NCBI GenBank assembly: GCA_959603585.1
Contig: CAUGYD010000006.1
Location: 46,288-110,287 of the forward strand
Direction: 5' to 3'
Length of the DNA stretch: 64,000 nt
Source: an uncultured Eubacteriales bacterium
Lineage (GTDB): Bacteria; Bacillota; Clostridia; Christensenellales; Borkfalkiaceae
In this document: positions 12,095 to 62,648 of the stretch, one piece after another
How positions within the stretch are numbered: the stretch's first letter is position 1
Layout: every line of letters begins with the position of its first letter
The notes under the pieces: model-generated
The model's input: the letters and a program-made list of their open reading frames with translations, nothing else
Database searches by the model: none
What the model was told of the DNA's origin: nothing
Translations under genes and position numbers: made by a program

Positions 12095-12106
12095 AATAAT
12101 AAAGAA

Positions 12107-13232: not shown

Positions 13233-13241
13233 ATTTTTCCC

Positions 13242-16582: not shown

Positions 16583-17333
16583 ATGGAAAAAGCTTCCTGA
16601 AAATATGCAAACGGAAGAAATTCGTCCGTACTGGGAGAAACTTAAAAAAAGGAATTGGAATCTATTTTGGAAGAGAATTTTTGATATTATTGTTTCTCTT
16701 CTTATGCTTATTGTTTTGTCTCCGTTGTTTTTCTGTTTAGCACTAGCAATAAAAATTGATAGCAAAGGACCGATTTTTTACAGACAAGTAAGAATTACGC
16801 AATATGGAAAAGAATTTGAAATCCATAAATTTAGAAGCATGATGGTTAATGCAGACAAAGGTAGTTTGGTAACTGTTAAAGATGACATGAGGGTGACTAA
16901 GGTTGGAAAGTTTATCAGAAAATATAGACTTGACGAAATTTCACAACTCATCGATGTTTTTCAGGGGAATATGTCTTTGGTGGGAACCCGTCCCGAAGTG
17001 CCTAAATATGTTGAATCGTATAGTCCTGTGATGAGGGCTTCTCTTCTGCTTCCTGCTGGAATAACCTCCGAAGCGAGCATCCTATATAAAAATGAAGCAG
17101 AACTTCTTGATAAATCAGAAGAGGTAGATAAAGTTTATATTGAAGAGGTTCTTCCTGCTAAGATGTATTATAATCTGAAAGAAATCCCGAAAGAAGGAAT
17201 ATTTCATGATATTAAAATAATGTTTATGACTGTCTTTACTGTCTTTGGAAAAGAATACAAAGGGGATTACAAGAAAGAGGTAATTCAAAATTTTGAAAAA
17301 CAAGAAATAGGAAAGGAGTTTGTTGGTAAATGA
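16569..17333 (+). CDS. Undecaprenyl-phosphate sugar-1-phosphate transferase, small PglC/WbaP-C-terminal type (initiating glycosyltransferase)
   Basis: A single N-terminal reentrant helix is followed by the Bac_transf motifs (KGPIFYRQVRITQYGKEFEIHKFRSM, DEISQLIDVFQGNMSLVGTRPE). Confidence 0.85.
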   Translation: MLICKWKKLPENMQTEEIRPYWEKLKKRNWNLFWKRIFDIIVSLLMLIVLSPLFFCLALAIKIDSKGPIFYRQVRITQYGKEFEIHKFRSMMVNADKGSLVTVKDDMRVTKVGKFIRKYRLDEISQLIDVFQGNMSLVGTRPEVPKYVESYSPVMRASLLLPAGITSEASILYKNEAELLDKSEEVDKVYIEEVLPAKMYYNLKEIPKEGIFHDIKIMFMTVFTVFGKEYKGDYKKEVIQNFEKQEIGKEFVGK

Positions 17334-18331: not shown

Positions 18332-18343
18332 GAGAAAACAACT

Positions 18344-19420
18344 GTGGTAGGTATTATTTTTATTGGTGATTTATATGTTTGTCCATATTTACATAGATAT
18401 ACAACTATATGTGACATAAATCAAGTTGAATATGAAGTATTATTTTGGAATAGATGTGGGGAAAAATTGAATCTTCCTAAAAATTATTTGTATTTTGAAA
18501 AAACCTCAAAAGAAGAACAAAACTTTATAATTAAAAGTATAGATTTTTTTAAATATAGGAATTGGTTAAAAAGGTGCATAAAGCAAAGAAAATATGAAAA
18601 ACTGATAATACTATCTACATTAAGCGGTATAGTTCTCTTTGATTTAATATCAAAATATAAAAATAGATATATTTTTGATATCCGTGACTATAGTTATGAA
18701 CACTTAAAACTTTTTTACAAGATAGAACGAAAAATAATTAGAAATAGTTATTATACTGCTATTTCATCTCCAGGCTTTAAAAATTTTTTACCACAGAATG
18801 ACTATTTCATAATTCATAATATGCAAAGTTCCGACTTGGATCATTTGGGTCGATTTCATAAGAAACATTATGGTGAAGTTTTGAATATTGTCTGGAATGG
18901 GACCATGCGGTATTTCGAACACCAAAGAAAGATTATCAAAAAATTGGCAAACGATTCAAGATTTATAATGTATTATTATGGAGATGGACCACAACTTAAT
19001 AAATATAAACAATATATTGAAGAACATAATATAAAAAATGTGTTTTTTACAGGGAAATATAATAATTCCGAAAAATCAAAATTATTAAAAAATGCTGATA
19101 TATTGAATAACAGTTATTGGATAGAGGGTAAAGAAAAGGAAGTATTGTATGCATTATCTAATCGATATTATGATGGCCTAATATATCGTATTCCGCAACT
19201 CGTTGAGGCGAAAACGTATAAGGCTTCACTTTGCGAAATAAACGAAATTGGTATTGGTATTGCCCCCAATATAGAAAATTTTTCTGATAAACTTTACGAA
19301 TGGTATTTTAATATTAATCAGTCGAGATTTGAAGAAAACTGTCAAAAACTTTTGACGAAGGCTATTAAAGAAGACCGAGAAATGAGTGAGAAACTGACAG
19401 ATTTTTTAACCAAGGAGTAG
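18344..19420 (+). CDS. Putative GT-B fold glycosyltransferase (GT4-like C-terminal half)
   Basis: The C-terminal segment IVWNGTMRYFEHQRKII...IMYYYGDGPQLNKYKQYIEEHNIKNVFFTGKY follows the GT4 pattern. The canonical EX7E motif is weak. Confidence 0.4.
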   Translation: MVGIIFIGDLYVCPYLHRYTTICDINQVEYEVLFWNRCGEKLNLPKNYLYFEKTSKEEQNFIIKSIDFFKYRNWLKRCIKQRKYEKLIILSTLSGIVLFDLISKYKNRYIFDIRDYSYEHLKLFYKIERKIIRNSYYTAISSPGFKNFLPQNDYFIIHNMQSSDLDHLGRFHKKHYGEVLNIVWNGTMRYFEHQRKIIKKLANDSRFIMYYYGDGPQLNKYKQYIEEHNIKNVFFTGKYNNSEKSKLLKNADILNNSYWIEGKEKEVLYALSNRYYDGLIYRIPQLVEAKTYKASLCEINEIGIGIAPNIENFSDKLYEWYFNINQSRFEENCQKLLTKAIKEDREMSEKLTDFLTKE

Positions 19421-19718
19421 GTTTATGACTGTGAATAAAAATAAATTTATTAAAAAATGCTAGATATACATTATTCAGCGTTATAGTCTAAAACGTATAG
19501 AAAATGAGAAAACAGGCAGTTTTACACTTTAACTACTTTTAAAGCGTTACAATTTTTGTTTTTTGAATAAATGAAAGTGAACCGTTTAACAATACCTTGC
19601 TTTGGGTTTTGTAAAATTGGTAAAAATATGAAAATTAGAGCGAAGATAATAGTTGTTGTTAGGGGTGTTCCTAATTTTACTACGGTAAGGGCTATAGGAT
19701 AATATTAAGAGGACATAT

Positions 19719-20903
19719 ATGAGTAAAATTTTATTTGTTGGCTGGTATCCTAATCCGGAAGATAAATATAAAAATATTTTTTTTCGTAATTTGATATTTG
19801 CTATGGCAGATATGGGGATAGAATGTACGGTAATATCGCCAGTTTCTTATATGCATTATGGTAAACGGATTAAAAATATTCCAAGGTTTGTTGACGAAAA
19901 AACTCTTGGAGGAAATAGTGTGCTTGTGTATTATCCAAGAATTTTATCGGCGTCTTCAAAACAAATAGGAAAGTATAATACAGAACATTTGTCGGAGCGA
20001 TTTTTTGAAAATGGTGCATTGAGGATAGCAAAATTTTTATTAAAACATAATCAAAAATTTAATGCTGTTTATGGGCACTTTTTTCTTTATGGAGGGTTGG
20101 CGGCGATAAGGATAGGTAAAGTATTAAAAATTCCTTCTTTTGTTGCTTTTGGAGAATGTGATTATGAAACTCAGATTCAACAAACTTATGGTGACCTAAA
20201 AAAGAAGGATATTGAAGGGTTGAGTGGTGTAATTGCTGTTTCTACTAAAAACGCAAAACGGCTCTTAGACTTAGGAATTTTTTCTGATATACCTATTATA
20301 GTAGCACCTAATTCAGTAGATCATAACATATTTCATCCGTTAAATCGTTTGGAGTGTAGGCATAGATTAGGATTATCTACTGACAAGTTTATTGTTGGGT
20401 TCGTTGGTGGTTTTATTGAAAGAAAAGGGGATAAACGACTCCTTGCGGCGGTAAACGAATTGGATGACGTATATTTAGTATATGCTGGTCGTGGTGACGT
20501 TCCCCCGTCAGGTGAGAAGGTTTTATTTTGTAAGGCTATGAAACATGACGATATACCAATCTTACTTTGTGCGGCAGATGTATTTTGTTTACCGACACTA
20601 AGTGAAGGCTCCTGTAATGCTGTTGTGGAAGCAATGGCTTGCGGGATTCCTGTAATATCGTCGAATCTTTCATTCAATGATGATGTGTTAACAGAAGAAA
20701 ATGCAATTAGAATTGATCCTTCTTCAGTGGATGAAATACGTGAGGCAATTTACGAAATAAAAGTAAATAATGTTTTACGCGATAGACTGGGAAAAGCTGC
20801 GTTAAAAACATCTGAAGGATTAAATATAAAAAATAGAGCAAAAAAAATACTTAATTTTATGTTTCGTGGAAATATGGAGGGAAATAATGATTCAGAATCA
20901 TAA
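19719..20903 (+). CDS. Family 4 (GT-B, retaining) glycosyltransferase
   Basis: The C-terminal Glycos_transf_1 signature carries an EX7E-type motif (LSEGSCNAVVEAMACGIPVISSN). Confidence 0.85.
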   Translation: MSKILFVGWYPNPEDKYKNIFFRNLIFAMADMGIECTVISPVSYMHYGKRIKNIPRFVDEKTLGGNSVLVYYPRILSASSKQIGKYNTEHLSERFFENGALRIAKFLLKHNQKFNAVYGHFFLYGGLAAIRIGKVLKIPSFVAFGECDYETQIQQTYGDLKKKDIEGLSGVIAVSTKNAKRLLDLGIFSDIPIIVAPNSVDHNIFHPLNRLECRHRLGLSTDKFIVGFVGGFIERKGDKRLLAAVNELDDVYLVYAGRGDVPPSGEKVLFCKAMKHDDIPILLCAADVFCLPTLSEGSCNAVVEAMACGIPVISSNLSFNDDVLTEENAIRIDPSSVDEIREAIYEIKVNNVLRDRLGKAALKTSEGLNIKNRAKKILNFMFRGNMEGNNDSES

Positions 20904-21464
20904 AGATTATAAACGATACCTTAATTCTGATGCTCATGCATTGTTCTCAAAAAAGCCTTCTATTATTGAGAAACTAAAGAATCCTATTTGGAAATATCAA
21001 AGATTATTAAGAAAATGCGAATATTTTCGAAATACTAATCGATTTGTTCCACTATATTTAAATATTCTATATCTATATAACAAATTTAGACTTTCAAAAT
21101 GGGGTATAAGTTAGGATTTAGCATATCAGAAAATGTTTTTGATGAGGGATTGAGTATAGCACATTACGGAACAATTATCGTTAATCCCTCTGTAAAAGTA
21201 GGAAAGAACTGTAGAATTCATGCGGGAGTAAATATAGGTGCAAGTGTTGATGGGAAAAGTCCTATGATAGGGGATAACGTATATATTGGGCCAGGAGCAA
21301 AAATATTCGGGGGAATAATTTTAGGTAACAATATAGCGGTAGGGGCTAATGCTGTTGTTAATAAAAGTTTCCCACTCGGAAATTGTACTATAGGAGGGAT
21401 TCCTGCTCATATAATTAGCGAAAAGGACTCTAGATTGCTTGCTGTTACATATTATTGGAAATGA
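20866..21464 (+). pseudogene. Hexapeptide-repeat sugar O-acetyltransferase (WcaB/CysE-like), disrupted by a 1-nt frameshift
   Basis: The N-terminal helical part (82 aa, frame 1, ending KWGIS*) and the left-handed beta-helix part (121 aa, frame 0, from MGYKLGFSISENVF...) overlap at 21099-21114. Together they make about 200 aa of one acetyltransferase. The slip is probably in the A4 run at 21095-21098 or the G4 run at 21101-21104. Confidence 0.55.
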
Positions 21465-21478
21465 GGTGACTTTAAAAA

Positions 21479-22696
21479 ATGGAATCGACGAACATGGTTG
21501 CAATAGTAAAAGAACACTCTTTAACGAGTAATATAGATAAGTGTAGGTTGCTGCTAATCGGGATATTGATTTTTTATATATTTTGTTTTCAGTATGTTTT
21601 TTATCCCATAAATGGTTTTCTTTCGCTTTTAGGTGTGATGTTGGCTTTTCTAGAGGTTTTGCGATTGTCACCCAAATATTATAAAAGGATTGGATATATA
21701 TGCACTTTCATAATTTTTGCTGCGCTATTTGGGTCGCTAACGGCATATGATATCAATGCTCATATAAGATTAATTGTTAATATGATGCAGTATTGTCTTC
21801 CGATGATAGCAATATGCGGATACGTGGGAAACAATGGGAAAAGATTATCCAATATTCTTCAAATAATGAGCTTTACAACTATTATACTAGCAATTTCATT
21901 AATATTTAATGGTGTAAAATTTACGGATTATGGGGCAGTGACTGTAGGAGATTTAAATACAAATGTCCTCTCTTGCTTTTTAATGATTGGTTTATTATCT
22001 CAGTTATTTTTACTTTGCGAATGTAAAAAGTCGATAATGAAAATAATTTTGTTTTGTGGAATTTTTATCGAATTAGTAGCGCAAATGCGAGCATCTTCAA
22101 GAAGAGGACTAGTAATTTTTGTTTTTTTATTGGGGGTTTATTTTTTATTGGCATATTTTATACGTTACAAAAAGAATTCTATAATGAAACTTTTTTTGGT
22201 TGTTTCAGTTATAGTTATATTTTTTATTTTTATGGCTAATTTCTATTCTTTGGCAGATAAGTATGTAATTTTGCGCCGATTATTTATGGGGGAGTTTAAT
22301 TCCGGTGATGCTTTAAGAGAGAAATATCAATCAGCTGCTTTCGAATTATTCAAAGAAGCGCCTATTTTTGGACAGGGGTTTGGATGCGTTTCGGCACGAG
22401 TTGGTATGTATAGTCATTCTATGTATTATGAAACATTGGCAAGCACGGGGGTTTTGGGAGGATTTTTATTATTTGGTTCGATTTTATCAAATATGTTCAA
22501 ATTTTTAAAAAGGGCAAAAAGTAGTAAACTCGAAGAATTAAAAATGAAATGCTATATGGGAGCGTGTGGATTTTTTGTAATATTATTATCAGGTATTGCG
22601 GTTGTCAGCATTTTTGATGCCTATTTTTATATTATGCTCGGTATATTAGGGGCGTTAGGCAATGTCGCATTCCAAAATCAAAAGGGGAATTTATGA
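21479..22696 (+). CDS. Wzy-type O-antigen/oligosaccharide polymerase (O-antigen ligase domain family membrane protein)
   Basis: The ORF predicts about 10-12 TM helices. A large loop contains the RRGLVIF segment. It lies in a Wzx-containing locus. Confidence 0.5.
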   Translation: MESTNMVAIVKEHSLTSNIDKCRLLLIGILIFYIFCFQYVFYPINGFLSLLGVMLAFLEVLRLSPKYYKRIGYICTFIIFAALFGSLTAYDINAHIRLIVNMMQYCLPMIAICGYVGNNGKRLSNILQIMSFTTIILAISLIFNGVKFTDYGAVTVGDLNTNVLSCFLMIGLLSQLFLLCECKKSIMKIILFCGIFIELVAQMRASSRRGLVIFVFLLGVYFLLAYFIRYKKNSIMKLFLVVSVIVIFFIFMANFYSLADKYVILRRLFMGEFNSGDALREKYQSAAFELFKEAPIFGQGFGCVSARVGMYSHSMYYETLASTGVLGGFLLFGSILSNMFKFLKRAKSSKLEELKMKCYMGACGFFVILLSGIAVVSIFDAYFYIMLGILGALGNVAFQNQKGNL

Positions 22697-23799
22697 AAGT
22701 ACTCTATTATTTTCTTGATTTACCTACAAATATGTTTCAATGGCAAAAATATCATATTATCGATGAACTTGCAACGCATAATATTTTTATTGACATTTTT
22801 TCTCCGTTAAAATATGCAAATATAGGACAAGCTAACGAAATGCTCCTAGAAGCTATTAATGGGTATGATATGTTTATGACCTGCCTAAATGAAACATATC
22901 TATATTTAGATACGCTACAAGAAATAAAGAAAAGAGGTATTCCTACGTTACTATTTTGTCCGGATAATTTGACCGCGCCGTTTAATCATAAAAAAATAGC
23001 ACCGTTTTTTGATTTAGTATGGCTGACTTCAATTGAAACGGAGTATTTGTTCAAACGTTGGGGAGCGAAAACGATTTTTCTTCCATATGCAGCTAACCCA
23101 AATTTGTTAAAGCCAATATCTTCGGAAAATGAGATTTTACGTGTCGGATTTGTCGGTACTCCTCACGGTAGTAGAATTGATAGAATAAATAAGTTACTCG
23201 ATGGCGGAATACCCATAACTGTACATACGTCAACAGAAAATTTTGATAATAAGCTTATAAAGGCTCCAATATTGGAGTATCTCAAAAAGTCTTCTTTATG
23301 GTTTCGTTATCCGCTTGGTCGACGACTTTTAATTGCTGCTATTCGTGATAAATTGGGCCATAGAGAGCTTATGGATAAAAAAAACTGTCTTGAAATAAAA
23401 GAACCAGTTTCTTTGGAGAAACTGTCGGAAATCAACGGAAGTTATGCATTAGTTTTGAGTTTTACAGAAGCGGATAGTACAGGGATTTTAAAACATCCTG
23501 TGCCAATTGTTAATTTACGTAATTTCGAAATTCCTATGTCGGGGGGATTACAATTTACTATGTATAGTAAAGAGATTGCAGAATATTTTGAGAATGATAA
23601 GGAGATTATTTTGGCTCGCTCTATGGAAGAATATATTGATAAAGCTAAATTTTATTTACAAGCGGAACAGACTTCTCTTAGAAAAAGAATAAGATTTGCA
23701 GCTAGAAAAAGAGCCCAAACACAACACACTTGGTATAATCGCTTTTCATGTATATTTCAGTCTCTAGGGCTGTATCAAATATTCGGAATTCAAAGGTAA
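22693..23799 (+). CDS. CgeB-family glycosyltransferase-like protein
   Basis: The C-terminal motifs (RVGFVGTPHGSRIDRINKLL, RKRAQTQHTWYNRF) resemble the CgeB/Glyco_trans_1_2 family. Assignment is weak. Confidence 0.4.
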   Translation: MKVLYYFLDLPTNMFQWQKYHIIDELATHNIFIDIFSPLKYANIGQANEMLLEAINGYDMFMTCLNETYLYLDTLQEIKKRGIPTLLFCPDNLTAPFNHKKIAPFFDLVWLTSIETEYLFKRWGAKTIFLPYAANPNLLKPISSENEILRVGFVGTPHGSRIDRINKLLDGGIPITVHTSTENFDNKLIKAPILEYLKKSSLWFRYPLGRRLLIAAIRDKLGHRELMDKKNCLEIKEPVSLEKLSEINGSYALVLSFTEADSTGILKHPVPIVNLRNFEIPMSGGLQFTMYSKEIAEYFENDKEIILARSMEEYIDKAKFYLQAEQTSLRKRIRFAARKRAQTQHTWYNRFSCIFQSLGLYQIFGIQR

Positions 23800-24073
23800 A
23801 CAGCTTTATTTTGTATTAAATTGGTGATATGCAACGAAATAATACTTTAAATAAGATATAAATTTAGTCTTTTTATTTTTTTGTAAACTATTCAACTTAA
23901 TTAATGTAAAATTTTAACCATTGTTTCAAGATAATATATTTTTTTGATAAGCACTAATTTTTTTATTTATTATAATTATATTTTGTAAAAATTTATTTTT
24001 CGAACATATTTTAAAATTTTTATAAAGAATAATTACTAAATAATGAAAAAGAATACTTTGTTAGAGGAATTGG

Positions 24074-25516
24074 ATGGGCAAAAAGAATTTGTTGCAAGGC
24101 ATAAGTTGGAGCCTTGCAGAAAAGTTATTACCTCAATTGGTAAGTTTAATTATTTCGGTTATTTTGGCTCGTTTGTTAGGACCAACAGAATATCGTGCAG
24201 TTGCAGTGGTTTTAATCTTCATAAATATCTGTGATGTTTTGGTTACAACAGGGTTTGGAATGGCGTTAATCCAAAAAAATGATGCAGATAAATTGGATTA
24301 TTCTACCATAAGTATTTTTAGTATTTCATTATCTATAGTTGTTGCGATAATTTTGTCGTCTATTTCCCCAACTATAGAAGGCTTTTTTGAAATACCTCAT
24401 TTGTCGCATTATCTTTCTGCGATGTCAATTCGAATTCCTCTCGCTGTTTTGAACTCAATTCAAAGAGCGTATTTACAAAAAAGTATGCAATTCAATAGAA
24501 TTTTTGTTGCGACATTGATAGGTACGCTTATATCAGGTATAATTGGTATAGTAATGGCACAAATAGGTTTTGGCACATGGGCTTTAATTGCACAATATTT
24601 ATCAAATTCAATTATTTCAACAATGATATTTTTATTTATAGCTAGATACCCGTTTAGCTTTCAATTTTCATGGCGCCGATTTGTTCCTATGTTTCGGTTT
24701 AGCTGGAAATTAACTTTTTCGGCTTTGTTTGCAAAGTTATATGACGAGTGTAGATCTGTAGTTATCGATAAAAAATATTCAGATAACTCTATTTCATATT
24801 ATAATAAAGGAATTCAAATACCTAATGTTGTATTGACGACTGTAAACGCTTCAATTACGACTGTTATGTTTCCTTTAATGGCAGAGATTCAAGATGAAAA
24901 AGAAAAATTAAAAAACACTTTAAGAGCTTCAATTAAACTTAGTACTTATGTGATTATGCCGATGATGATGGGGCTTATGATTGTGTCAAAGCCATTGGTA
25001 ATTCTACTTTATACGGAAACATGGGTTTCTACTATCCCATATATGCAAATTTTTGCTTTGTCGTATATTTGTACTCCAATTATAGAACTAAATCAGCGTG
25101 CGATTCAAGCGATTGGGAAAAGTGGTATTGTTATGAGGATTGAAATAATTAATAAATTGTTTGGTCTATTGACTATGTTGATTGTAATTTTATATTGTAA
25201 TTCGCCTATTTATATTGCAGGAAGTTTTGGGATATATATGTTGTTTTCATTAATTTCAAGTATGCTTGTTTATGGACGAACTATTGGATATTCTATGTTG
25301 CAACAATTAAATGATATTAAAAGTTCCTTTTTTATTAGTATTTTGATGTGTTGTACAATTTGGCCATTACATTATATAATTAATAATATGGCTCTTTTAC
25401 TTATATGCCAAATAATAGTTGGGATTTTTGTGTATATATTATTATCTAGTATTTTTAAAATACAGGAATTTAAGATACTTTATGAGCTTCTAATCAAAAT
25501 AATTAAGAAACAATAG
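24074..25516 (+). CDS. Wzx-type oligosaccharide flippase (MOP/polysaccharide biosynthesis protein family)
   Basis: The 480-aa ORF predicts about 12-14 TM helices. Its N-terminus (LLQGISWSLAEKLLPQLVSLIISVILARLLGPTEYRAVAV) is typical of RfbX/Wzx. Confidence 0.8.
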   Translation: MGKKNLLQGISWSLAEKLLPQLVSLIISVILARLLGPTEYRAVAVVLIFINICDVLVTTGFGMALIQKNDADKLDYSTISIFSISLSIVVAIILSSISPTIEGFFEIPHLSHYLSAMSIRIPLAVLNSIQRAYLQKSMQFNRIFVATLIGTLISGIIGIVMAQIGFGTWALIAQYLSNSIISTMIFLFIARYPFSFQFSWRRFVPMFRFSWKLTFSALFAKLYDECRSVVIDKKYSDNSISYYNKGIQIPNVVLTTVNASITTVMFPLMAEIQDEKEKLKNTLRASIKLSTYVIMPMMMGLMIVSKPLVILLYTETWVSTIPYMQIFALSYICTPIIELNQRAIQAIGKSGIVMRIEIINKLFGLLTMLIVILYCNSPIYIAGSFGIYMLFSLISSMLVYGRTIGYSMLQQLNDIKSSFFISILMCCTIWPLHYIINNMALLLICQIIVGIFVYILLSSIFKIQEFKILYELLIKIIKKQ

Positions 25517-30947: not shown

Positions 30948-31241
30948 ATGAAAAATCGATTCGATATAAGCGCCTTTGTGAACGTGTTGACGGTCCAAAC
31001 GGCTATGGAAAATTTAGCACAGCGTTTTCGGAAAAGACGGAAGGAGAAAAAACTTTCTCAGAAAAGAATTGCTCAGCAATCCGGAGTGAGTTACGCTTCC
31101 GTGCGCCGTTTTGAAAGTAGCGGACGAATTTCCCTTCATTCGCTGATGGAGCTCGCACGTGTTCTCGGCTGCCTCGAAGATTTTAACGAGCTGTTCAAAA
31201 CGCCCGTTATTTCTGACTTAGAAGATTACGACGATGATTAA
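30948..31241 (+). CDS. hipB: XRE-family HTH antitoxin, HipB-like
   Basis: The HTH motif LSQKRIAQQSGVSYASVRRFESSG and an acidic C-tail are present. Its stop overlaps the hipA start by 8 nt. An extended -10 TGcTAAAAT lies 9 nt upstream of the ATG at 30948, so the mRNA may be leaderless. An alternative start is at 31005. Confidence 0.7.
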   Translation: MKNRFDISAFVNVLTVQTAMENLAQRFRKRRKEKKLSQKRIAQQSGVSYASVRRFESSGRISLHSLMELARVLGCLEDFNELFKTPVISDLEDYDDD

Positions 31242-32328
31242 AAACATTAAAAAACTTACTGTAAAATATAATGATAGGACCGTAGGAATTCTGGCTGAGG
31301 TGGAAGAAGGGAAAATCGCGTTTCAGTATGACGAAAAGTGGGTGAAGAACGGTTTTTCGGTTTCGCCGGTTTCGCTTCCCTTGAATAGGGAAGTATATGT
31401 CAATCGTAAAGATACGTTTGAAGGATTGTATGGGGTGTTTCATGATTCTCTGCCCGACGGTTGGGGGGAACTTCTCGTCAGCCGCATGTTGGTGAAACAA
31501 GGAATGAATTATGCGGAGCTTTCTCCGCTCACGAAGCTTTCAATCGTTTCGGAAAACGGGCTCGGAGGGTTAACGTATGAACCGTCTCAAACGGAGAAAG
31601 AGAGCGTCGGCTATAACCTCGATGCTTTGGCGCAGCAGGCGGCAGACGTTTTGGAGGACGGAGACATCAATGCCGATTTGGATACGATTTATTATTTGGG
31701 CGGTTCGAGCGGAGGCGCTCGTCCCAAAGTGCATGTTCGTGAGGGAAAAGAGGAATGGATTGTGAAGTTTCCTTGCCGTATCGATTCGCCCGAATCTGGG
31801 CGGAAAGAGCTAGAAATGAATTTCGCTGCCAAACGCTGCGGAATCGACGTAAATGAATGTAAATTGTTTCCGTCGAAGATCTGCGGCGGATATTTCGGCG
31901 CGAAACGTTTTGACAGGCAGGACGGAAAGCATTTGCATATGATTTCCCTTTCGTCCGTTTTGGAAACGACGCATCGCGTACCCAATCTCGACTATATGCA
32001 CTTGTTTCAGGTGATTTCCGTCATCTGCGGCGATATGAACGACTTGTACGAGGCTTTTCGGCGGATGTGTTTCAATGTTTTTTATGAAAACAAGGATGAC
32101 CACGGAAAAAATTTTTCCTTTCTCTACGACGAAAAGAGATATATGTATCGTCTGTCTCCCGCTTACGATTTGACGCAAACTCCGAATAAACCCGAACATG
32201 AAATGACGGTTCTCGGAAACGGCAATCCGACGGAAGAGGACTTGATCGCCGTCTCCAAAGAACTGAACCTTTCCCGAAAGCGCTGTATTCATATCTTGGA
32301 AACGGTGAAAAAGGGGGAATATCAGTAA
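31234..32328 (+). CDS. hipA: HipA-family serine/threonine kinase toxin
   Basis: The HipA N-terminal domain is followed by the catalytic motifs GGSSGGARPKV and DDHGKNFSF (compare D-x-H-x-KN-x-S) and by SPAYDL. Confidence 0.85.
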   Translation: MIKNIKKLTVKYNDRTVGILAEVEEGKIAFQYDEKWVKNGFSVSPVSLPLNREVYVNRKDTFEGLYGVFHDSLPDGWGELLVSRMLVKQGMNYAELSPLTKLSIVSENGLGGLTYEPSQTEKESVGYNLDALAQQAADVLEDGDINADLDTIYYLGGSSGGARPKVHVREGKEEWIVKFPCRIDSPESGRKELEMNFAAKRCGIDVNECKLFPSKICGGYFGAKRFDRQDGKHLHMISLSSVLETTHRVPNLDYMHLFQVISVICGDMNDLYEAFRRMCFNVFYENKDDHGKNFSFLYDEKRYMYRLSPAYDLTQTPNKPEHEMTVLGNGNPTEEDLIAVSKELNLSRKRCIHILETVKKGEYQ

Positions 32329-33205
32329 ATTGGGGAAACGTTGTCATAATAAAGAAAATCGTGGAGTTTCCTCTCGAAGATTTTCACAATTTTATTTATT
32401 ATTTTACATAGAATCTTTTACCTTCAAAATCATGGTATCAATTGATGTCTGATATACCGGTAATGCCTTTAAGTACTATATAGTATATTTTCAGCATATT
32501 TCACCATAATATATTTGATTCATGGATGCTTCGTAAAAAAATTTATTGACGATGAAGGAATCGTATGCTATAATGGATGTAAAAATTTGAGACTTGTATG
32601 ATAGATACAATGAAAGGAAATCTGGCCTATACGGGAAGGGAACACAGAAATGGTTTGTATCCAGTGTTTTTTTTAACATTTCCCGTCGTTGGCTTTTGGA
32701 TATTTTTCGTCTATGTCAATATAACCTCGATATTTATGGCTTTTCAGTAGCCGAATTACAACGATGGCGGATTGAAAGAAGTATATACGCTTGAAAAATT
32801 CAGGAAGATATTTAATTTTTCAAATGTGGATTTCAAGACCCCTTGTCAATAAAATAGTCTTTCTAAAATTGAAATTTTATGGTACTCGCGAATACGAAAA
32901 AAGGAATAAGTCAAACAAACATAATTCTATAGAGATTAAAAAAGAAAGTGAATTACAGGCGAGACAATTGTCTTGTCTGTTTTTTCTTTTATATTGAGTA
33001 AAGTTCCATTCTCGACGATCATTATTAACTCAAAACATTGACTTTTTATTGTTGTTAGAGTATGATATAGTTAAGGTTGGAAAAGAATTTGAGAGTTTGG
33101 TTTATACGATTAGCGCAAAACAGTGAATTTAATTATGAAACAAATAAATCGAAATGAAGACATGGCGATGGAAAGATTCGTTCATTTTTGTCTGGAGGGG
33201 ATATA

Positions 33206-35680
33206 ATGAGTAAGACATCGGATTTTAAAAAGATGACAAGTTGCATTATAGATCCAATTGCGGATAAGTATACAGAATATGAAAAGTTAAAGACAGAATG
33301 CGCGCAATTACGAGCGGAAAATACGAAATTAAGAGAGAAATTAGATAGTCTGTGCATTCGTTACGGTATAGAATTACCCGACGAAGATAATTCCAGTGAT
33401 GTCGCTTCGGAAGCAGAAAAGACTGAAGAAATATCCCCCGCTGTGACAAATTGCAGTACGTCCGAAGAAAAAATCGAGTTATTTATGTCGCTGTTCCGTG
33501 GGCGGGAGGACGTATGCGCCAAACGCTGGCACAGCGAAAAGAGTGGAAAAAGCGGGTATCAACCGGTATGCCTAAACGAATGGAATACATGGCTTTGCGA
33601 TAAGAGGAAAACGAAGTGTGCGGATTGTAAAAACAGAAAATTTGCTCCGCTTACGGAAAATGTTATCCGCAAGCATTTACAGGGAAAAGTCGCAAATAGC
33701 ACGGATACAATCGGCGTATATCCGTTGACGAAGGATGAATGCTGTTATTTTCTCGTCATAGATTTTGACGGTGAAGGTTGGAAAGAAGATATTTCCGCCG
33801 TGCGGGAAATATGCGGAAAAAATGATATTCCCGTTCTTGCCGAACGTTCTAGATCGGGGCAGGGCGGACACCTTTGGTTCTTCTTTACGGATAAAGTCAA
33901 AGCCTCACAGGCCCGGAGATTGGGAACTCTTCTGATTAACGGAGCTATGCAGGTAAGACACGACATCGGCTTTTCTGCGTATGACAGATTATTCCCTAAT
34001 CAAGATGTCATGCCGAAAGGAGGTTTCGGAAATTTGATCGTGCTGCCGTTACAGGGCGGTCCGCGTCGAAACGGAAACAGTGTATTCGTCGATGAAGATT
34101 TTAAGGAATATCCCGACCAGTGGCAGGTCCTTGCCTGCGTTTCGCGGATAGATGAGGAAAAACTAAAAGAAAAGGTTAGAGTACTTTCAATATATGACGA
34201 GCCAGTTGAACAATCAATATTGCGGACAACTGAAAGTCATGACGGCAGAAAGCAAAAATCAGGCTTGTCCGCCGAGGATTTTCCGTCGATTATCCGTATT
34301 TCTTGTTCAAATATGATCTATACGGAAAAAAGCGGCGTTTCCGAACGGGCGCTCGGCGCGATTAAACGAATGGGCGTATATGCCAATCCCGAGTTTTTTA
34401 AGGCTCAAAAAATGCGTTTACCTACTTATGGAAAACCGAGATTTATTTGCGTGTACGAAGAGGACGATGCATATATCGTAATTCCGCGTGGGCGGCTCGA
34501 CAGGTTACGCTCGCTGTTAAAAGAAGCGGGAGTGCAATTTTTGTTGGACGACAGAAGGAACGGCGGAGAAAAAATCAAGGTATCCTTTAACGGAACTTTG
34601 CGTGAAGAACAACAGCGCGCGTTTTCGGCGCTTATGTCGCGCGATACGGGTGTATTGTCGGCAACTACTGCGTTCGGAAAGACGGTGGTCGGGGCGCGAA
34701 TGATTGCCGAAAGAAAACGAAATACATTGGTATTGGTACATACTTCGGCACTTCTCAACCAATGGAAATCCACTTTGACGAAATTTCTTGATTTTGGTTA
34801 TGAATTGCCCGAATGGAAAAAAACGCGAGGCCGGAAGAAAGAACTTTCGTATATCGGGCAACTGGGTGCGGCCAAAAATACGCTGAACGGCAAAATCGAT
34901 ATTGCGATTATGCAGTCTCTCGGCGGAAAAAACGGTGTAAAGGAGATTGTTAAGAATTACGGCCTCGTTATCGTAGACGAATGTCATCATGTACCCGCGC
35001 TCATGTTCGAGCAAGTGCTGAAAGCGGTGAATGCAAAATATGTTTATGGTTTGACGGCGACGCCTGTTCGCGCGGACGGAGGCTTGAAAACGCTCAATCG
35101 GATTTTTTCGGAGCTTTGTGTAAGCAAAAACCGCAACAAATTAATAGTGGACGACGTTGTGAAAACGGTGGATTGCGGTCGTATGCCCATTGTCTTGACC
35201 GAACGTTCCGAACACGCGAAACTGTTAACCGACGAAATCGAAAAACGGAGCGTAAAGGTCTTCTTGCTGGTCGGGAAAGAATCGGCAAAACTCAAAAGGG
35301 AAAAATTGGCGGAGATTGCCGCCGCAAAGCCTTTGGAGCGCTTTGCGATTGTAGCGATCGGTCGATATGTGGGAGAAGGCTTCGATTTCGCGAGACTGGA
35401 CACGCTGTTTTTGGCTATGCTTATTTCGTGGAAAGGAAAACTGACACAATACGCGGGACGGCTTCACCGAGATTATGCGGGTAAAAACGAAGTAATTATT
35501 TACGATTATGTCGATTTGAACGTATCAATGCTCGAAAATATGTATCATAAGAGATTGAAGGGCTATAAAGATATCGGTTACGAGATCCATGCGGACATAA
35601 AATCGTGCAAGCGTGGTACTACTTGTGATGTAATTTATAAGGAAGGGACAGGGAGAAAATGCTCATTGACAGGGAAATGA
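33206..35680 (+). CDS. Multidomain protein: coiled-coil, Cys-rich region, PrimPol/AEP-like domain, SF2 DEAD/DEAH-type helicase
   Basis: The RBS GGAGGGG lies 5 nt before the ATG at 33206. Residues about 20-55 form a coiled-coil (heptad pattern). Around residue 100 is a Cys cluster (CAKRW...CLNEWNTWLCDKRKTKCADC). AEP-like motifs are present: hhhhDhD (YFLVIDFDGEG), sGxGxH (SRSGQGGHLWFFF) and motif III (RHDIGF...DRLFP). The C-terminal half is an SF2 helicase with Walker A TAFGKTVVG, Walker B VIVDECHHVPA, motif III LTATPVRADG and an Arg-finger region GRYVGEGFDFARLDTLFLA. Confidence 0.6.
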   Translation: MSKTSDFKKMTSCIIDPIADKYTEYEKLKTECAQLRAENTKLREKLDSLCIRYGIELPDEDNSSDVASEAEKTEEISPAVTNCSTSEEKIELFMSLFRGREDVCAKRWHSEKSGKSGYQPVCLNEWNTWLCDKRKTKCADCKNRKFAPLTENVIRKHLQGKVANSTDTIGVYPLTKDECCYFLVIDFDGEGWKEDISAVREICGKNDIPVLAERSRSGQGGHLWFFFTDKVKASQARRLGTLLINGAMQVRHDIGFSAYDRLFPNQDVMPKGGFGNLIVLPLQGGPRRNGNSVFVDEDFKEYPDQWQVLACVSRIDEEKLKEKVRVLSIYDEPVEQSILRTTESHDGRKQKSGLSAEDFPSIIRISCSNMIYTEKSGVSERALGAIKRMGVYANPEFFKAQKMRLPTYGKPRFICVYEEDDAYIVIPRGRLDRLRSLLKEAGVQFLLDDRRNGGEKIKVSFNGTLREEQQRAFSALMSRDTGVLSATTAFGKTVVGARMIAERKRNTLVLVHTSALLNQWKSTLTKFLDFGYELPEWKKTRGRKKELSYIGQLGAAKNTLNGKIDIAIMQSLGGKNGVKEIVKNYGLVIVDECHHVPALMFEQVLKAVNAKYVYGLTATPVRADGGLKTLNRIFSELCVSKNRNKLIVDDVVKTVDCGRMPIVLTERSEHAKLLTDEIEKRSVKVFLLVGKESAKLKREKLAEIAAAKPLERFAIVAIGRYVGEGFDFARLDTLFLAMLISWKGKLTQYAGRLHRDYAGKNEVIIYDYVDLNVSMLENMYHKRLKGYKDIGYEIHADIKSCKRGTTCDVIYKEGTGRKCSLTGK

Positions 35681-52356: not shown

Positions 52357-53112
52357 TTGAAAAAACATCGCAACCGCGCCGTAGAGAAAGAGCGGCCGAA
52401 TAAAAACGTAATGCTCAACGTAGTCACGAACTGCGCTTTGGCGTTTCTCATTTTTTCCGTGGGGGTCGTCTGCCTGTTCCCCGTAGACAGTGCGGTGACG
52501 ACGGACGGCGGAGAAAGCAACGTCTATCGCTGTGCGCCGGGAGAATCGGACGGAGTCTCTTTAATGTTTAACGTCTATTGGGGTACGGACGAAGTATACC
52601 GCATTCTCGATACTTTGGACGCCCACGAGGGAAAAGCCACGTTTTTTATCGGCGGAAGCTGGGCGGACGATAACGTCGCTTGCGTGAAGGAAATTTTATC
52701 CCGCGGCCATGAACTCGGCAATCACGGCTATTTCCATAAGGATCATTCCGCGATGACCGAGGAAGAAAATCGGGAGGAGATTTCCGTGTGCAATCGTTTC
52801 ATTCACCTGATGACGGGAGTGCAGATGACCCTTTTCGCTCCGCCTTCGGGGGCATACGGAAAGGCGGCTTTGTCCGCCTGCGCGGCTCTGAACATGAAAA
52901 CCATTCTGTGGTCGAGAGACACCATCGACTGGCGGGATAAAGATTCTTCTCTCATATACAGCCGCGCGACAAAAAATATCAAGGGCGGAGAGTTTGTCCT
53001 CATGCACCCCATGAAGGAGACGGCTGACGCCCTGGACGATATACTGACATATTATGAGACCTGTGCACTCCGTGCGGTGACCGTTTCGGAGAATTTACAG
53101 GCGGGAGGATAA
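52357..53112 (+). CDS. Polysaccharide deacetylase (NodB-homology) family protein, PdaB-like
   Basis: An N-terminal TM helix is followed by the NodB motifs TFFIGGSWADD and HELGNHGYFH. Confidence 0.7.
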   Translation: MKKHRNRAVEKERPNKNVMLNVVTNCALAFLIFSVGVVCLFPVDSAVTTDGGESNVYRCAPGESDGVSLMFNVYWGTDEVYRILDTLDAHEGKATFFIGGSWADDNVACVKEILSRGHELGNHGYFHKDHSAMTEEENREEISVCNRFIHLMTGVQMTLFAPPSGAYGKAALSACAALNMKTILWSRDTIDWRDKDSSLIYSRATKNIKGGEFVLMHPMKETADALDDILTYYETCALRAVTVSENLQAGG

Positions 53113-53115
53113 CAA

Positions 53116-54354
53116 ATGGTTTACGAAAAAAGATATGAAAACGGGCTTCGCTTGGTGGTCAAGCAAATGGAAGGACTTTTGTCCGTTACGATGGGGATTC
53201 TCGTCGGAACGGGTTCGTCCGCGGAGACGGACGCGGAAGACGGCATTTCCCATTTCATCGAACACATGCAGTTCAAGGGTACGAAGAAACGTACTTCTTT
53301 TGAAATTTCCGACGCGTTCGACCGCATCGGCGCTCAGGTGAACGCCTTTACGGGAAAGGATATGACCTGCTATTATTCCAAATGTACGTCCGACCATACG
53401 GCGGAGGCGTTTGAAATTTTGTCCGACCTTTTCCTGAACAGCACCTTCCCCGAAGAAGAAATGGTGCGTGAAAAGGGCGTAGTCGCCGAGGAAATTTCCA
53501 TGAACGAGGATACTCCCGACGACCTCTGCCTCGACCTCCTTTCTTCCGCGTTTTACGGAAAGGAAAATTACGGGCGGAATATTCTGGGTCCCGTCTCCAA
53601 CGTCAAAGGTTTTACGAGGGAGGATATTTTCCGCTATAAAGAGGCAAGATATTGTCCCGAAAATATCGTCGTTTCCTTCGCGGGCGGCATCGATATGCAG
53701 ACGGCAGAAGCATTGGCGGAAACAATGCTCGCTTCTCTTCCGAAGGGAAAATTCGAGCGGAGGGAAAATCACATTTCGCTTCAACACCGCAGTTTGATAA
53801 AGAAAAAGCCTATCGAACAGGTGCATTTTGCCATCGGATATCCGGCTCTTCCGCGCGAACATGCGCTCTCCGACGCCTTGCAGACCATGAACAGCGTTTT
53901 GGGCGGCAGCATGAGTTCCCGCCTCTTTCAGGAAGTCCGTGAAAAAATGGGGCTTGCCTATTCCGTATATTCCTATGTTTCCGCTTTTTCCGAATGCGGT
54001 TCGCTCATCATTTATGCCGGGGTGAATCCCGCCAGCGCGGACAAAGCCTACGAGGCAATCGGCAAAGTGGTGAAGGAACTGAAAGACAAGGGGATTACGG
54101 AAGAAGAATTTCTCCGCGGAAGGGAACAGATGAAGGCGGCTATGCTTTTTTCACAGGAAAGCACTTCCTCTCAGATGCTCCTTTACGGAAAATATATGCT
54201 TTTCAACGATACGCTTTTCGACTTTGAAGGCAAGCTCGACGCAATCAATAAGATTACGCAGAGCGACGTAGCCGAAACAATTTCTCTCGCCTTCGACGAA
54301 AAGAAAAAGGCGGTCGGCGCCGTGGGCAATCTGGACAAGCCCTTTGAACTTTGA
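53116..54354 (+). CDS. M16-family zinc peptidase (insulinase-like)
   Basis: The inverted zincin motif HFIEH...E (GISHFIEHMQFKGT) is present. Confidence 0.8.
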   Translation: MVYEKRYENGLRLVVKQMEGLLSVTMGILVGTGSSAETDAEDGISHFIEHMQFKGTKKRTSFEISDAFDRIGAQVNAFTGKDMTCYYSKCTSDHTAEAFEILSDLFLNSTFPEEEMVREKGVVAEEISMNEDTPDDLCLDLLSSAFYGKENYGRNILGPVSNVKGFTREDIFRYKEARYCPENIVVSFAGGIDMQTAEALAETMLASLPKGKFERRENHISLQHRSLIKKKPIEQVHFAIGYPALPREHALSDALQTMNSVLGGSMSSRLFQEVREKMGLAYSVYSYVSAFSECGSLIIYAGVNPASADKAYEAIGKVVKELKDKGITEEEFLRGREQMKAAMLFSQESTSSQMLLYGKYMLFNDTLFDFEGKLDAINKITQSDVAETISLAFDEKKKAVGAVGNLDKPFEL

Positions 54355-59815: not shown

Positions 59816-60015
59816 GAAAAAAGACTTTTTTATGCAAATAGACAAATTTCGACACGCTTCAACAGAATAATTTAAAATAAATCAAAACTTTCGATAATTA
59901 ATTTTGGTATTATGTAAAATATTGCTTTACGAAGTCTGTTTTTTGTAGTATAATATCCTTGTTAAATATGAAGGTCGACAAGGCCTGCAAATTTTTTTCA
60001 AGGAGGAACGATATA

Positions 60016-60783
60016 ATGCGTTCAAAAACAGTGGTACTGCTGGAATCCAACGGCGCGTTGCTCAGCGAGTTGAAGGAAGCTCTGGCGAAAAACGAAGGCC
60101 TGAATGTCGCGTATGCGGGGGACGATGGGGAAGCGGGAATTCGGGAATTGCACCGATTGAAGCCCGATTTGGCCATCGTCGGAATGTTTCTGAAAGGAAC
60201 GGACGGCTGCGGTGTCATTCAGGCGATACGAAAAGAGGAGGCAGGGACAAAAATTATTGCGACGGGGGTACCAAGCGATACCCTTATGGAAAAGGCGATG
60301 AGCGAGGGGGCCGACTACTATCTCGTAAAGCCTTTTTCCATGCAAGGAGCTTTGGAACGGGTAGAAGAGCTATTGAAAGACTCGCCTGTATCCGGAGAAG
60401 GAAAGGAATATGCGAGCGCTAAACGTCGCCCTGTAACCTTAGAAGAAAAAATCAGCGACATCTTCATTTCCATCGGAATCCCGCCCCACATCAAGGGCTA
60501 TGGATACTTGCGTGCAGGAATTAAAATGACAGTCGAACAACCTTATATTATCAACAATATCACGAAGGGACTGTATCCCAGCATCGCCGAAAAGTTCGGT
60601 ACGACGCCGAGTAAAGTTGAACGAGCCATTCGCCATGCGATAGAAGTTGCTTGGAATCGAGGCAGAATAGATGCCATTAATGCAGTTTTCGGAACCAGAG
60701 TTTATTTGGGCACGGAAAAGCCCACGAACAGCGAATTCATCGCTTTGGTTGCGGATAAATTAATCCTTGAAAATATGATATAA
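60016..60783 (+). CDS. spo0A: Sporulation master regulator Spo0A homologue with a degenerate (pseudo-)receiver domain
   Basis: The C-terminal domain matches Spo0A_C almost residue for residue (PHIKGYGYLRAGI, SKVERAIRHAIEVAWNRG, KPTNSEFIALVADKL). The N-terminal receiver fold is present, but Asp is absent at the acid-pocket position (ES for DD) and at the phospho-acceptor position (G). An RBS AGGAGG precedes the chosen ATG. Confidence 0.8.
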   Translation: MRSKTVVLLESNGALLSELKEALAKNEGLNVAYAGDDGEAGIRELHRLKPDLAIVGMFLKGTDGCGVIQAIRKEEAGTKIIATGVPSDTLMEKAMSEGADYYLVKPFSMQGALERVEELLKDSPVSGEGKEYASAKRRPVTLEEKISDIFISIGIPPHIKGYGYLRAGIKMTVEQPYIINNITKGLYPSIAEKFGTTPSKVERAIRHAIEVAWNRGRIDAINAVFGTRVYLGTEKPTNSEFIALVADKLILENMI

Positions 60784-60958
60784 AAATATAAAGACATCTC
60801 GAAAAGGACTTGCGGTTTTGCCCGGGTTCTTTTTTCTTTGTTTTTGCTTGACAAGCGTCATAAAAAAGGGTATAATATAAGTATGAAAAGTAAAACTTTT
60901 CTAACTTTATATACAAGGCAGGTTCAAAATGGAAAAAAAATTTCCGGAAGGAAAATTC

Positions 60959-61150
60959 ATGACAACGGTAAAAATCGGACCGAAGGGGCAAATCGTCATA
61001 CCGAAGGAAGTTCGGAAGATGTTTGGATTTCAGCCCGGGGACTCGGTATTGCTTCTTGCAGATAAAGGGCAGGGAATAGCCATACAGCCGTTTGAGTTTG
61101 CGGAAGAATTTTGGAATCAAGTACAGATGCAGAGGGAAAAGAAAAGATGA
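60959..61150 (+). CDS. AbrB/MazE/SpoVT-family swapped-hairpin DNA-binding protein
   Basis: The motif VKIGPKGQIVIPKEVRK is present. The RBS GGAAGGAAA lies before the ATG at 60959. The stop overlaps the start of the downstream ABC ATPase. Confidence 0.6.
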   Translation: MTTVKIGPKGQIVIPKEVRKMFGFQPGDSVLLLADKGQGIAIQPFEFAEEFWNQVQMQREKKR

Positions 61151-62004
61151 ACGCTTTAACCGTTTCAAATCTTAAAAAAGAGTATCCCTGTTTTCATTTG
61201 AAGGAGGTTTCCTTTTCTTGTCGGAAAGGGCGAATCGTGGGGCTTATCGGCCGAAACGGAGCCGGAAAAACGACGATTTTGAAAAGTATTATGAATCTGA
61301 TTTCCAGTGAAGGAAAAATCGAATATTTCGGACTTCCTTTTCGGAAAAACGAGCGGCTCATAAAACAAAAGATCGGGTACGTGAGCGGAGGATTTGATTT
61401 TTATCCTTTAAAGACGTTACGTCTGATCTGTAAGACCGTATCTTCGTTTTATGACGATTGGAACGAACAGACGTATCGGGAATATCTCGAACGCTTTTCT
61501 CTCGATGAGAATAAAAAAGTTCATGATTTGTCGGAAGGCATGAAGGTCAAATTTTCCATTACTTTGGCGCTGTCGCACGGTGCAGAGTTTCTCATCATGG
61601 ACGAACCGACGAGCGGATTAGATCCGCTTTCGAGGGAAGAGTTTTGCGACATTATTTTGACTCTTTCGCGAGAAAAGAATATTTCCGTATTATTTTCCAC
61701 TCATATTACATCAGATCTCATGCGTATAGCGGACGATATTATATATATTTCTGACGGGGAAATCTTGCTGGAATGTGGTTTGAAAGAGCTGATAAATCGT
61801 TATAAGAAAGTTTCTTTCAGAAATGCAGAAGAAGCGAAAATCTGCAAATTTCCTGTCTTTGGGCTCAAGCGGGTGAAGGAAGGATACGAAGCACTCGTCA
61901 AAAGGGAAGATTTATCACATTTTAAAGGGGAAGCAAAAGACGTTGACTTAGACGAAATCATTATCCATCTCGAAACGGAAAAGGACAAGAAAAAATGTTT
62001 TTGA
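61147..62004 (+). CDS. ABC transporter ATP-binding protein (BcrA-like)
   Basis: The Walker A GRNGAGKTT, the signature LSEGMK and the Walker B FLIMDEPTSGLD are present. Confidence 0.85.
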   Translation: MNALTVSNLKKEYPCFHLKEVSFSCRKGRIVGLIGRNGAGKTTILKSIMNLISSEGKIEYFGLPFRKNERLIKQKIGYVSGGFDFYPLKTLRLICKTVSSFYDDWNEQTYREYLERFSLDENKKVHDLSEGMKVKFSITLALSHGAEFLIMDEPTSGLDPLSREEFCDIILTLSREKNISVLFSTHITSDLMRIADDIIYISDGEILLECGLKELINRYKKVSFRNAEEAKICKFPVFGLKRVKEGYEALVKREDLSHFKGEAKDVDLDEIIIHLETEKDKKKCF

Positions 62005-62648
62005 ATCTATTAAAAAAAGAATTTACATTGGCGTTACATCCCACGTCCGTCGTATTTGTATTCTTTGCGGCATTTGTATTTATTCCCAACTATCCTTATG
62101 AAGTGATGTGCTTCTTTTCCTGTCTTTCCATATATTTCATGTGTCTGTCGGGCAGAGAAAATAAAGATATTTTTTTCACTTGTATGCTCCCGGTTCAGAA
62201 AGGACAAATAGCTCTCGCCAGAATTGTAACGGCGGTTATTTTACAAACGGCACTTCTGCTTTTATCTGCCTTTCTGATCGTTTTGAAAGCTTTCTTGTTG
62301 CCTGAAATGATAAATCAGGCGGGGTTGGACGCAAATCTCGCATTGATAGGCTGGGGTTTTATTCTCTTTGCGGTTTTTAATATTTGCTATTTTCCCATGT
62401 ACTTCAAAGAACCAAACAAAATCGGCAAACCCTTTCTAATCTCTTCCGTAATTTTATTTTTACTTATCGCGGCGGCCGTCACGGCCTCTTATACGGTTCC
62501 GTTTATTCGAAATTATATCGATAAGCCCGGTTTCGCCTACCTCAGTTATCAAATTGTTGTACTATTGGTCGGAATTATCGCCTATACATTAGTAACAGCA
62601 CTTGCAACGCATTTATCTGTTCGACGCTTTGAAAAAGTGGACATTTGA
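61995..62648 (+). CDS. ABC-2/BcrB-like membrane permease
   Basis: The 217-aa ORF predicts about 6 TM helices. It overlaps the ATPase stop. Confidence 0.45.
   Translation: MFLNLLKKEFTLALHPTSVVFVFFAAFVFIPNYPYEVMCFFSCLSIYFMCLSGRENKDIFFTCMLPVQKGQIALARIVTAVILQTALLLLSAFLIVLKAFLLPEMINQAGLDANLALIGWGFILFAVFNICYFPMYFKEPNKIGKPFLISSVILFLLIAAAVTASYTVPFIRNYIDKPGFAYLSYQIVVLLVGIIAYTLVTALATHLSVRRFEKVDI

Follow-up and report, generated by a model that had tools for sequence, protein, structure and literature searches.

An aspartate-less Spo0A ortholog with conserved phased 0A boxes, and an Asp-less paralog, in the Candidatus Scatosoma clade of gut Clostridia

A spo0A-type gene at positions 60016-60783 (+) of a 64,000-nucleotide stretch of DNA from an uncultured Eubacteriales bacterium of the Borkfalkiaceae (contig CAUGYD010000006.1 of assembly GCA_959603585.1, positions 46,288 to 110,287; the whole stretch is referred to below as the window) encodes a protein in which the Mg2+/phosphoryl pocket of the receiver domain is dismantled (E10, S11 and G56), and the whole Candidatus Scatosoma clade has this dismantled pocket as a fixed trait. 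Spo0A is the textbook master regulator whose activity is gated by a phosphorelay or by orphan kinases. On balance, we favor the view that the gene is the lineage's ortholog of Spo0A, that its receiver has become aspartate-less and that its product acts independently of Asp phosphorylation and regulates its own synthesis; the protein thus probably works without the classical phosphorylation switch.

The open reading frame begins with an ATG at 60016, preceded by a ribosome-binding site (AGGAGG, 60001-60006, +) 9 nt ahead of it, ends with a stop codon at 60781-60783 and specifies a product of 255 amino acids. Three segments can be distinguished on the + strand: an aspartate-less receiver or pseudo-receiver (residues 4-120, 60025-60375), a variable inter-domain linker (residues 121-140, 60376-60435; conservation 0.52) and a Spo0A_C DNA-binding and trans-activation domain (residues 141-255, 60436-60780). 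A preceding interpretation made from the letters of the DNA (the sequence-only reading) had assigned the C-terminal effector domain to Spo0A_C, and all comparisons agree: Pfam Spo0A_C (PF08769) matches residues 146-249 over the full length of its profile (E 2.7e-39), a phmmer comparison of the query with 1LQ1 gives E 1.6e-36, and the domain is 55-57% identical to the Spo0A-C structures 1LQ1 and 1FC3, with a root-mean-square deviation (rmsd) of 0.9-1.9 Å from the model. The Foldseek superposition on DNA-bound Spo0A-C (1LQ1) has an rmsd of 0.9 Å at 57% identity. Within this domain, the recognition segment TTPSKVERAIRHAIEVAW (60601-60654, +) differs from that of B. subtilis Spo0A at 2 positions, and residues S199-R215 are invariant in the clade (alignment A1). 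That the receiver keeps its fold, as had also been proposed, is borne out by the Pfam match of residues 7-116 to Response_reg (PF00072; E 8.3e-14) and by the AlphaFold2 model (mean predicted local distance difference test score, pLDDT, 82), in which the receiver adopts a normal (beta-alpha)5 fold with pLDDT of 82-94 and linker residues 123-138 are disordered (pLDDT <50). Foldseek matches this domain to Spo0A-N (1QMP, 5WQ0) and to CheY-like structures. The full-length protein passes the NCBIfam Spo0A equivalog model TIGR02875 narrowly, at 219.8 bits over a cutoff of 200; a paralog described below scores 225 bits, and B. subtilis Spo0A scores 435 bits. Public records label these proteins plainly as Spo0A.

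Loss of the phosphorylation pocket was evident in each comparison. When the protein is aligned by MAFFT with 120 homologs and B. subtilis Spo0A, D10 is replaced by E10 (60043-60045), D11 by S11 (60046-60048) and D56 by G56 (codon GGA, 60181-60183), and T86 and K108 correspond to T83 and K105. The sequence-only reading had described the acidic pair as Glu-Ser and the acceptor as Gly, and both assignments hold. The phmmer alignment to MtrA likewise places G56 opposite the MtrA acceptor Asp; its register in beta1 is shifted by one residue, putting S11/N12 opposite the acidic pair, but the pair is broken in either register. In the AlphaFold model, beta3 comprises residues 52-56 with G56 last, and no Asp occurs among residues 52-62. 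The formal alignments therefore place no Asp at the acceptor position, and a different alignment register is ruled out by the two alignments together with the model. A sequencing error is also excluded, because exactly the same protein is indexed in 647 public assembly blocks (290 contigs listed). Judged by residues, the query has E10, S11 and G56 where a canonical Spo0A has D10/D11 and D56, and it combines a receiver fold with a non-Asp acceptor position (G56), as is characteristic of an aspartate-less receiver. The switch Thr and the Lys that had been noted as conserved are both kept in the query protein; Thr, however, is variable across the clade.

To place the query among its relatives we used a clade set of 81 sequences, consisting of the window and 80 loci from a scan with one genome per species; most of the 80 loci bear the label Candidatus Scatosoma or uncultured Clostridia and originate from the guts of humans, chickens, deer, goats and sheep. 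Position 10 is Glu in 76 sequences and Asp in 5, position 11 is Asp in none of the 81, and position 56 is Gly in 54, Ser in 23, Asn in 1, Ala in 1 and Asp in 2. At the switch Thr position (83), T, M, I, L, V, S or C is found, and Lys is present at position 105 in 80 of 81 sequences. All 120 of the closest database homologs (68-96% identity) have Glu, then Ser or Ala, then Gly or Ser at the three acidic positions. Loss of the acceptor is thus a trait of the clade, extending over at least ~80 species. (One member of the cluster represented by P0002, MFR1553496.1, is recorded as originating from a Coriobacteriales metagenome-assembled genome, MAG; since the protein belongs to the Clostridia clade, an error of binning or taxonomy is the probable cause.)

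Despite the loss of the phosphorylation site, the receiver does not appear to be decaying. We calculated the ratio of nonsynonymous to synonymous substitution rates (dN/dS) by the Nei-Gojobori method; over 60 usable pairs its median is 0.086 in the receiver (~0.09) and 0.027 in the C-terminal domain, and the close pair formed by the window and locus L001 gives 0.09 for the receiver at a dS of 0.2. Because these ratios are low, both domains are judged to be under purifying selection, and the pseudo-receiver to be functional rather than decaying. The best-conserved elements of the receiver are its former active-site loops, namely beta1-alpha1 (ESN, 0.94), beta3-alpha3 (MFLKGTD, 0.91) and beta5-alpha5 (KPFS, 0.95), with the receiver helices below them at 0.62-0.78. 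Where a Pro is usual, four residues past the acceptor, the query has K60, which is invariant in alignment A1, as is E10 (E in 76 of the 81 clade sequences); D63 is invariant as well, and C65 is variable (C, S, F, L, T or A). It is reasonable to conclude, as the sequence-only reading did, that the canonical site offers such a protein no route to activation, and this conclusion is strengthened by the clade-wide loss of the site, the variable Thr and the purifying selection.

Gene order supports assignment of the query as a Spo0A ortholog. Upstream, the order MutS2, deacetylase, M16 peptidase, Tex, acyl carrier protein, ABC-F, spo0A is kept in species with ~70% identity, and the genes downstream vary between species, with no conserved neighbor that points to a partner. 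Two deeper clusters retain the order ABC-F - spo0A - polA - coaE - glgCD; their representatives are 52% identical (P0271, pocket E-S-N-S-K) and 49% identical (P0285, pocket E-R-D-S-K, with Asp at the acceptor position) to the query. The window has this same order once one inserted block is discounted. Since this locus is shared by lineages at ~50% identity, one of them Asp-bearing, the gene is taken to be the lineage's ortholog, in line with the sequence-only reading. Comparison of the pockets suggests an order of events, in which loss of the second acidic residue seems to have come first in this neighborhood and that of the acceptor Asp later. The nearest fully canonical cluster representative (P0128, DDDSK, 46% identity) sits in a different gene context.

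Loss of the acceptor Asp is not confined to this clade. We also aligned a wider set of 119 sequences, made up of the query, B. subtilis Spo0A and 117 full-length cluster representatives taken from the 150 nearest hits among the 50%-identity clusters. In this sample, which is biased towards the query, 27 lack Asp56 and have Gly (10), Glu (8), Asn (4), Ser (3), Gln (1) or Tyr (1) instead. A neighbor-joining tree, which is rough and poorly resolved, scatters the Asp56-less sequences with ~22 state changes, and from this scatter the loss of the acceptor site seems to be recurrent. As roughly one in four of the nearest 50%-identity clusters lacks the Asp, the comparison suggests that Asp-less Spo0A proteins are widespread and under-reported. 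The 50% cluster library also contains four proteins of 394-454 amino acids with an unusual architecture (P0122, P0124, P0127 and P0130), each with three or four separate Spo0A_C-like stretches.

Upstream of the gene lies an array of three 0A-type boxes in 10-bp phase (ATAGACA-aat-TTCGACA-cgc-TTCAACA, 59838-59864, +), and phased 0A boxes precede the gene in nearly every species. The middle box is the perfect 0A box TGTCGAA on the minus strand to which the sequence-only reading had drawn attention; it does exist, at 59848-59854, 168 bp upstream of the ATG, where that reading had given a position near 59849-59856. Of 75 homologous loci, 67 have an exact TTCGACA between -124 and -180 relative to the ATG, always on the gene strand, and pairs of boxes exactly 10 bp apart are common among these loci. 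Altogether, the 75 homologous upstream regions contain 80 boxes compared with 1.7 expected from shuffled sequences. When 1.35 Mb of clade DNA was searched on both strands for TTCGACAnnnTTCGACA with at most one mismatch, all 46 matches (an estimated ~0.4 expected by chance) lay directly upstream of spo0A homologs and on the same strand as these. The box columns of the upstream alignment are at least 90% conserved, compared with 30-50% for their flanks, and orthologs at ~50% identity have the same layout of boxes and promoter. In the 1LQ1 structure, two Spo0A-C molecules lie head-to-tail on tandem boxes with a 10-bp repeat. Given the conserved phased boxes and a recognition segment so close to the B. 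subtilis one, autoregulation through the 0A boxes is strongly indicated at the level of sequence, and the earlier suggestion that autoregulation may persist is accordingly well supported.

A sigma-A-type core promoter (TTTACG-17-TATAAT, 59926-59954, +) lies between the boxes and the gene. It matches the consensus at 10 of 12 positions, has a predicted start near 59961 and is conserved as GCTTTAC(A/G)...GTAGTATAAT with a 17-bp spacing to TATAAT across the clade and in the paralog. A consensus scan also found a weak promoter-like element that we regard as tentative (TCGACA-18-TAAAAT, 59849-59878, +), the -35 element of which overlaps the perfect 0A box. Going with this putative element is a block of the upstream alignment, TTTTAAAATA, that is more than 90% conserved.

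The species of the query carries a second Asp-less gene of this type. Two MAGs (L005 and L013) each contain a second gene, ~75% identical to the query, in an unrelated context, with a HisKA_3/LuxR-type pair, a HAD hydrolase and glutamate dehydrogenase as neighbors. A human gut protein, P0361, matches this paralog, and its gene (L095:10001-10765, ERZ28634784 scaffold_12, same species) is located on the 476,765-bp scaffold that also carries the query gene, ~285 kb away from it; a binning artifact as the source of the second copy is thereby rejected. P0361 has the pocket E-S-G-T-K; its receiver shares 72% identity with that of the query, and its C-terminal domain 86%. Its promoter region has a box array of its own (AAAGACA-aaa-TTCGACA-agt-TTCGCTA) and the same core promoter as the query, which argues that the duplication took in the regulatory region and that this region has since been retained. 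Cross-regulation between the two copies, or the formation of heterodimers, is possible. The 1.35 Mb of clade DNA contained no further Spo0A_C match.

Taken together, these observations are consistent with a mechanism in which head-to-tail oligomers of the protein, resembling those of Spo0A-C on tandem boxes, would occupy the phased boxes of its own promoter and that of its paralog, so that its synthesis would be auto- and cross-regulated through box binding and its activity would be independent of His-Asp phosphotransfer. The receiver would be retained as a dimerization and regulatory module. Its remodeled top face, formed by E10-S11-N12, M57-F58-L59-K60-G61-T62-D63 and K105-P106-F107, might either lock the protein in an active-like state or respond to a different input, for instance a partner protein or a small ligand. 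Output would then be set mainly by the level of the protein through autoregulation, and not by a kinase or phosphorelay.

Several points weigh against this mechanism. DNA binding, oligomeric state and independence of phosphorylation are all deduced from sequence, and it is possible that a canonical, Asp-bearing Spo0A is encoded elsewhere in the genome or that kinases act in another way. A single TGTCGAA is not enriched in the window (11 found, 12.1 expected), so that the lone box at 59848-59854 is uninformative by itself, and the box scan of the window revealed no regulon apart from spo0A itself. Some 100 bp also separate the array from the strongest conserved promoter downstream of it, so that the autoregulation might be positive or negative. 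Finally, two of the clade loci, L067 and L074, have Asp56, yet S11 and Ile at the Thr position.

Of the other explanations, the one that fares best is a signal-regulated switch that operates without Asp phosphorylation, in which the pseudo-receiver would inhibit the C-terminal domain until an input reaches its top face; we regard this as a possibility to be kept in view, clearly second to the mechanism set out above. The input could be a partner protein, a small ligand, a redox change or Ser/Thr/Tyr phosphorylation. The switch overlaps largely with the mechanism that we prefer, the sole difference being whether activity is switched or constitutive. It would account for the former active-site loops being the best-conserved receiver elements, with K60 and D63 invariant and E10 nearly so (76 of 81), and there are documented aspartate-less receivers that respond to other inputs (PMC4395418). 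Ser at position 56 in 23 of 81 sequences also speaks for it. Against it, Gly, the commonest residue there, cannot be modified, C65 is not invariant, and no conserved neighboring gene hints at a partner.

A further explanation, which we consider distinctly unlikely, is that a canonical, phosphorylatable Spo0A encoded elsewhere is the real master regulator and that the Asp-less copies are accessory paralogs or antagonists, with an effect on it through, for instance, competition for 0A boxes or mixed oligomers. Precedent exists in the Spo0A paralogs found in 11 of 118 Spo0A-encoding genomes (10.1101/2022.02.25.481979), and three observations are in line with an accessory role: two copies are present on scaffolds of the query's species, Asp56 is missing from ~23% of the nearest 50%-identity Spo0A clusters, which are interspersed with canonical ones, and the TIGR02875 score is barely over its cutoff. 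Nevertheless, the gene occupies the locus of its deeper orthologs, the Asp-bearing one included, the two MAGs, like the scaffold of the query's species, have Asp-less versions of both copies, and the search of the 1.35 Mb of clade DNA for Spo0A_C returned nothing beyond these genes. That the gene is instead a relic of a lineage without sporulation, drifting towards a pseudogene after loss of the site, is hardly credible: many non-spore-formers do keep spo0A, the 64-kb window contains no sporulation-specific Pfam family and the usual spoIVB neighbor is absent, but dN/dS is ~0.09 for the receiver and ~0.03 for the C-terminal domain, the reading frames are intact in ~80 species, the promoter and 0A boxes are conserved, and the duplicate has been retained together with its promoter.

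The surroundings of the gene offer a limited view of the sporulation capacity of the organism. Sporulation genes were sought in Pfam tables covering the window (1-64 kb) and ~10 kb on either side, and no sporulation-specific Pfam family was found within the window itself. On a contig of the same species (L094:5310-5600), a gene for a 96-amino-acid SpoIIID-like transcription factor precedes the window start by ~4.7 kb; it has a Pfam SpoIIID match and scores 99 bits with TIGR02844, under the cutoff of 111.5. This gene hints that part of a mother-cell sporulation program survives in the organism. The usual neighbor of spo0A is spoIVB, which is absent beside the query gene. Upstream, at 52357-54354, is a polysaccharide deacetylase gene with best matches to the sporulation families YlxY and PdaB, far under their cutoffs, followed by an M16 peptidase gene; we take the two to resemble the ylxY-mlpA pair of B. 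subtilis. Immediately downstream of the query gene, a perfect sigma-A consensus promoter (TTGACA-17-TATAAT, 60848-60876) would drive both a gene for a 73-amino-acid protein of the AbrB/MazE/SpoVT fold (60929-61150) and the two-gene ABC exporter that follows (block 60848-62648). The AbrB/MazE-fold gene was considered as a Spo0A-linked transition-state regulator and set aside as incidental, because it, like the rest of the block, is not conserved beside spo0A in other species.

The window also encodes NrdDG, Pta-AckA, UvrC, HprK, MutS2, Tex and ABC-F. A 498-amino-acid Rho-like protein (1493-2989) falls under the curated Rho cutoffs (288 vs 315 and 267 vs 509 bits) and is divergent or extended. 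An island of low GC content (31-35%) at 12000-25000 carries polysaccharide-biosynthesis genes (glycosyltransferases, Wzy, a flippase and epimerases); it adjoins a tyrosine integrase gene (10279-11544) and is probably a horizontally acquired locus of the capsule or O-antigen type. Finally, a toxin-antitoxin pair of a HipB-like helix-turn-helix protein and HipA (30948-32328) and an 830-amino-acid open reading frame (824 amino acids as called) for an AEP-type primase/helicase (AEP-TOTE, ResIII, DEAD; 33188-35680) form a block that looks like a mobile or defense-related insertion.

A conserved and selected Spo0A ortholog that cannot use the phospho-gate would be a natural counter-example to the textbook scheme, in a gut genus abundant in humans, poultry and ruminants, and would show how control of a master regulator of development can be rewired so as to dispense with phosphorylation, probably in favor of dosage or autoregulation. 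We also put forward, as a speculation that is unlikely on present evidence, that Candidatus Scatosoma sporulates, or runs another Spo0A-dependent developmental program, without any kinase or phosphorelay, by means of an auto- and cross-regulated circuit of two Asp-less paralogs acting on phased 0A boxes; repeated loss of the Asp in other uncultured Clostridia would then make phosphorylation-free Spo0A circuits an alternative design that recurs. In practical terms, the presence of spo0A serves as a marker of spore-formers in metagenomes, and caution is warranted for Asp-less genes, the signaling logic of which must differ.

The literature that we searched contained no description of an Asp-less Spo0A lineage, apart from one line in a supplementary census that counts 7 aspartate-less receivers (ALRs) among 391 Response_reg~Spo0A_C proteins and leaves them undiscussed (PMC4395418). 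What is new here is that the loss is fixed throughout the clade, that the pseudo-receiver is under selection, that phased 0A boxes are conserved and that a second, Asp-less paralog exists.

Compared with the canonical Spo0A of B. subtilis, G. stearothermophilus and Clostridioides difficile, the query has the same architecture of receiver and Spo0A_C domains, keeps N12 of the DDN motif, the aromatic switch residue Y102 and K105-P-F, has 0A boxes in its own promoter region and passes the NCBIfam equivalog cutoff. In contrast, its pocket of Glu-Ser and Gly provides no site for His-Asp phosphotransfer, the switch Thr is not conserved in its clade, spoIVB is not its neighbor, its species has two copies and its TIGR02875 score is 219.8 bits as opposed to 435 for B. 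subtilis Spo0A; a role of the query in sporulation is at most putative. Multiple spo0A-type genes per genome, as in the query's species, have been reported in Clostridia: Galperin et al. (2022; 10.1101/2022.02.25.481979) found spo0A in 40 non-spore-formers and paralogs in 11 genomes, of which 10 have two copies and that of Anaerostipes hadrus has three. The state of the phospho-site is unreported there, whereas the copies described here are both Asp-less and have the same box and promoter architecture.

The closest parallel in receiver chemistry is offered by the ALR response regulators RitR, HP1043/HsrA, ChxR, GlnR and WhiI covered by Maule et al. (2015; PMC4395418), who estimated that ~4% of receivers lack the Asp and described such receivers as constitutive or alternatively regulated modules that retain the dimer interface. 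Like these, the query has a receiver fold with a substituted phospho-Asp, a reorganized pocket in which the Lys and the aromatic switch are kept, and a receiver under selection, and by analogy its behavior would be expected to be constitutive or alternatively regulated. It differs from them in its Spo0A_C output domain and in the Gly at its acceptor position, where Glu is most frequent in ALRs, and in being the ortholog of a developmental master regulator that is fixed over ~80 species together with conserved autoregulatory sites.

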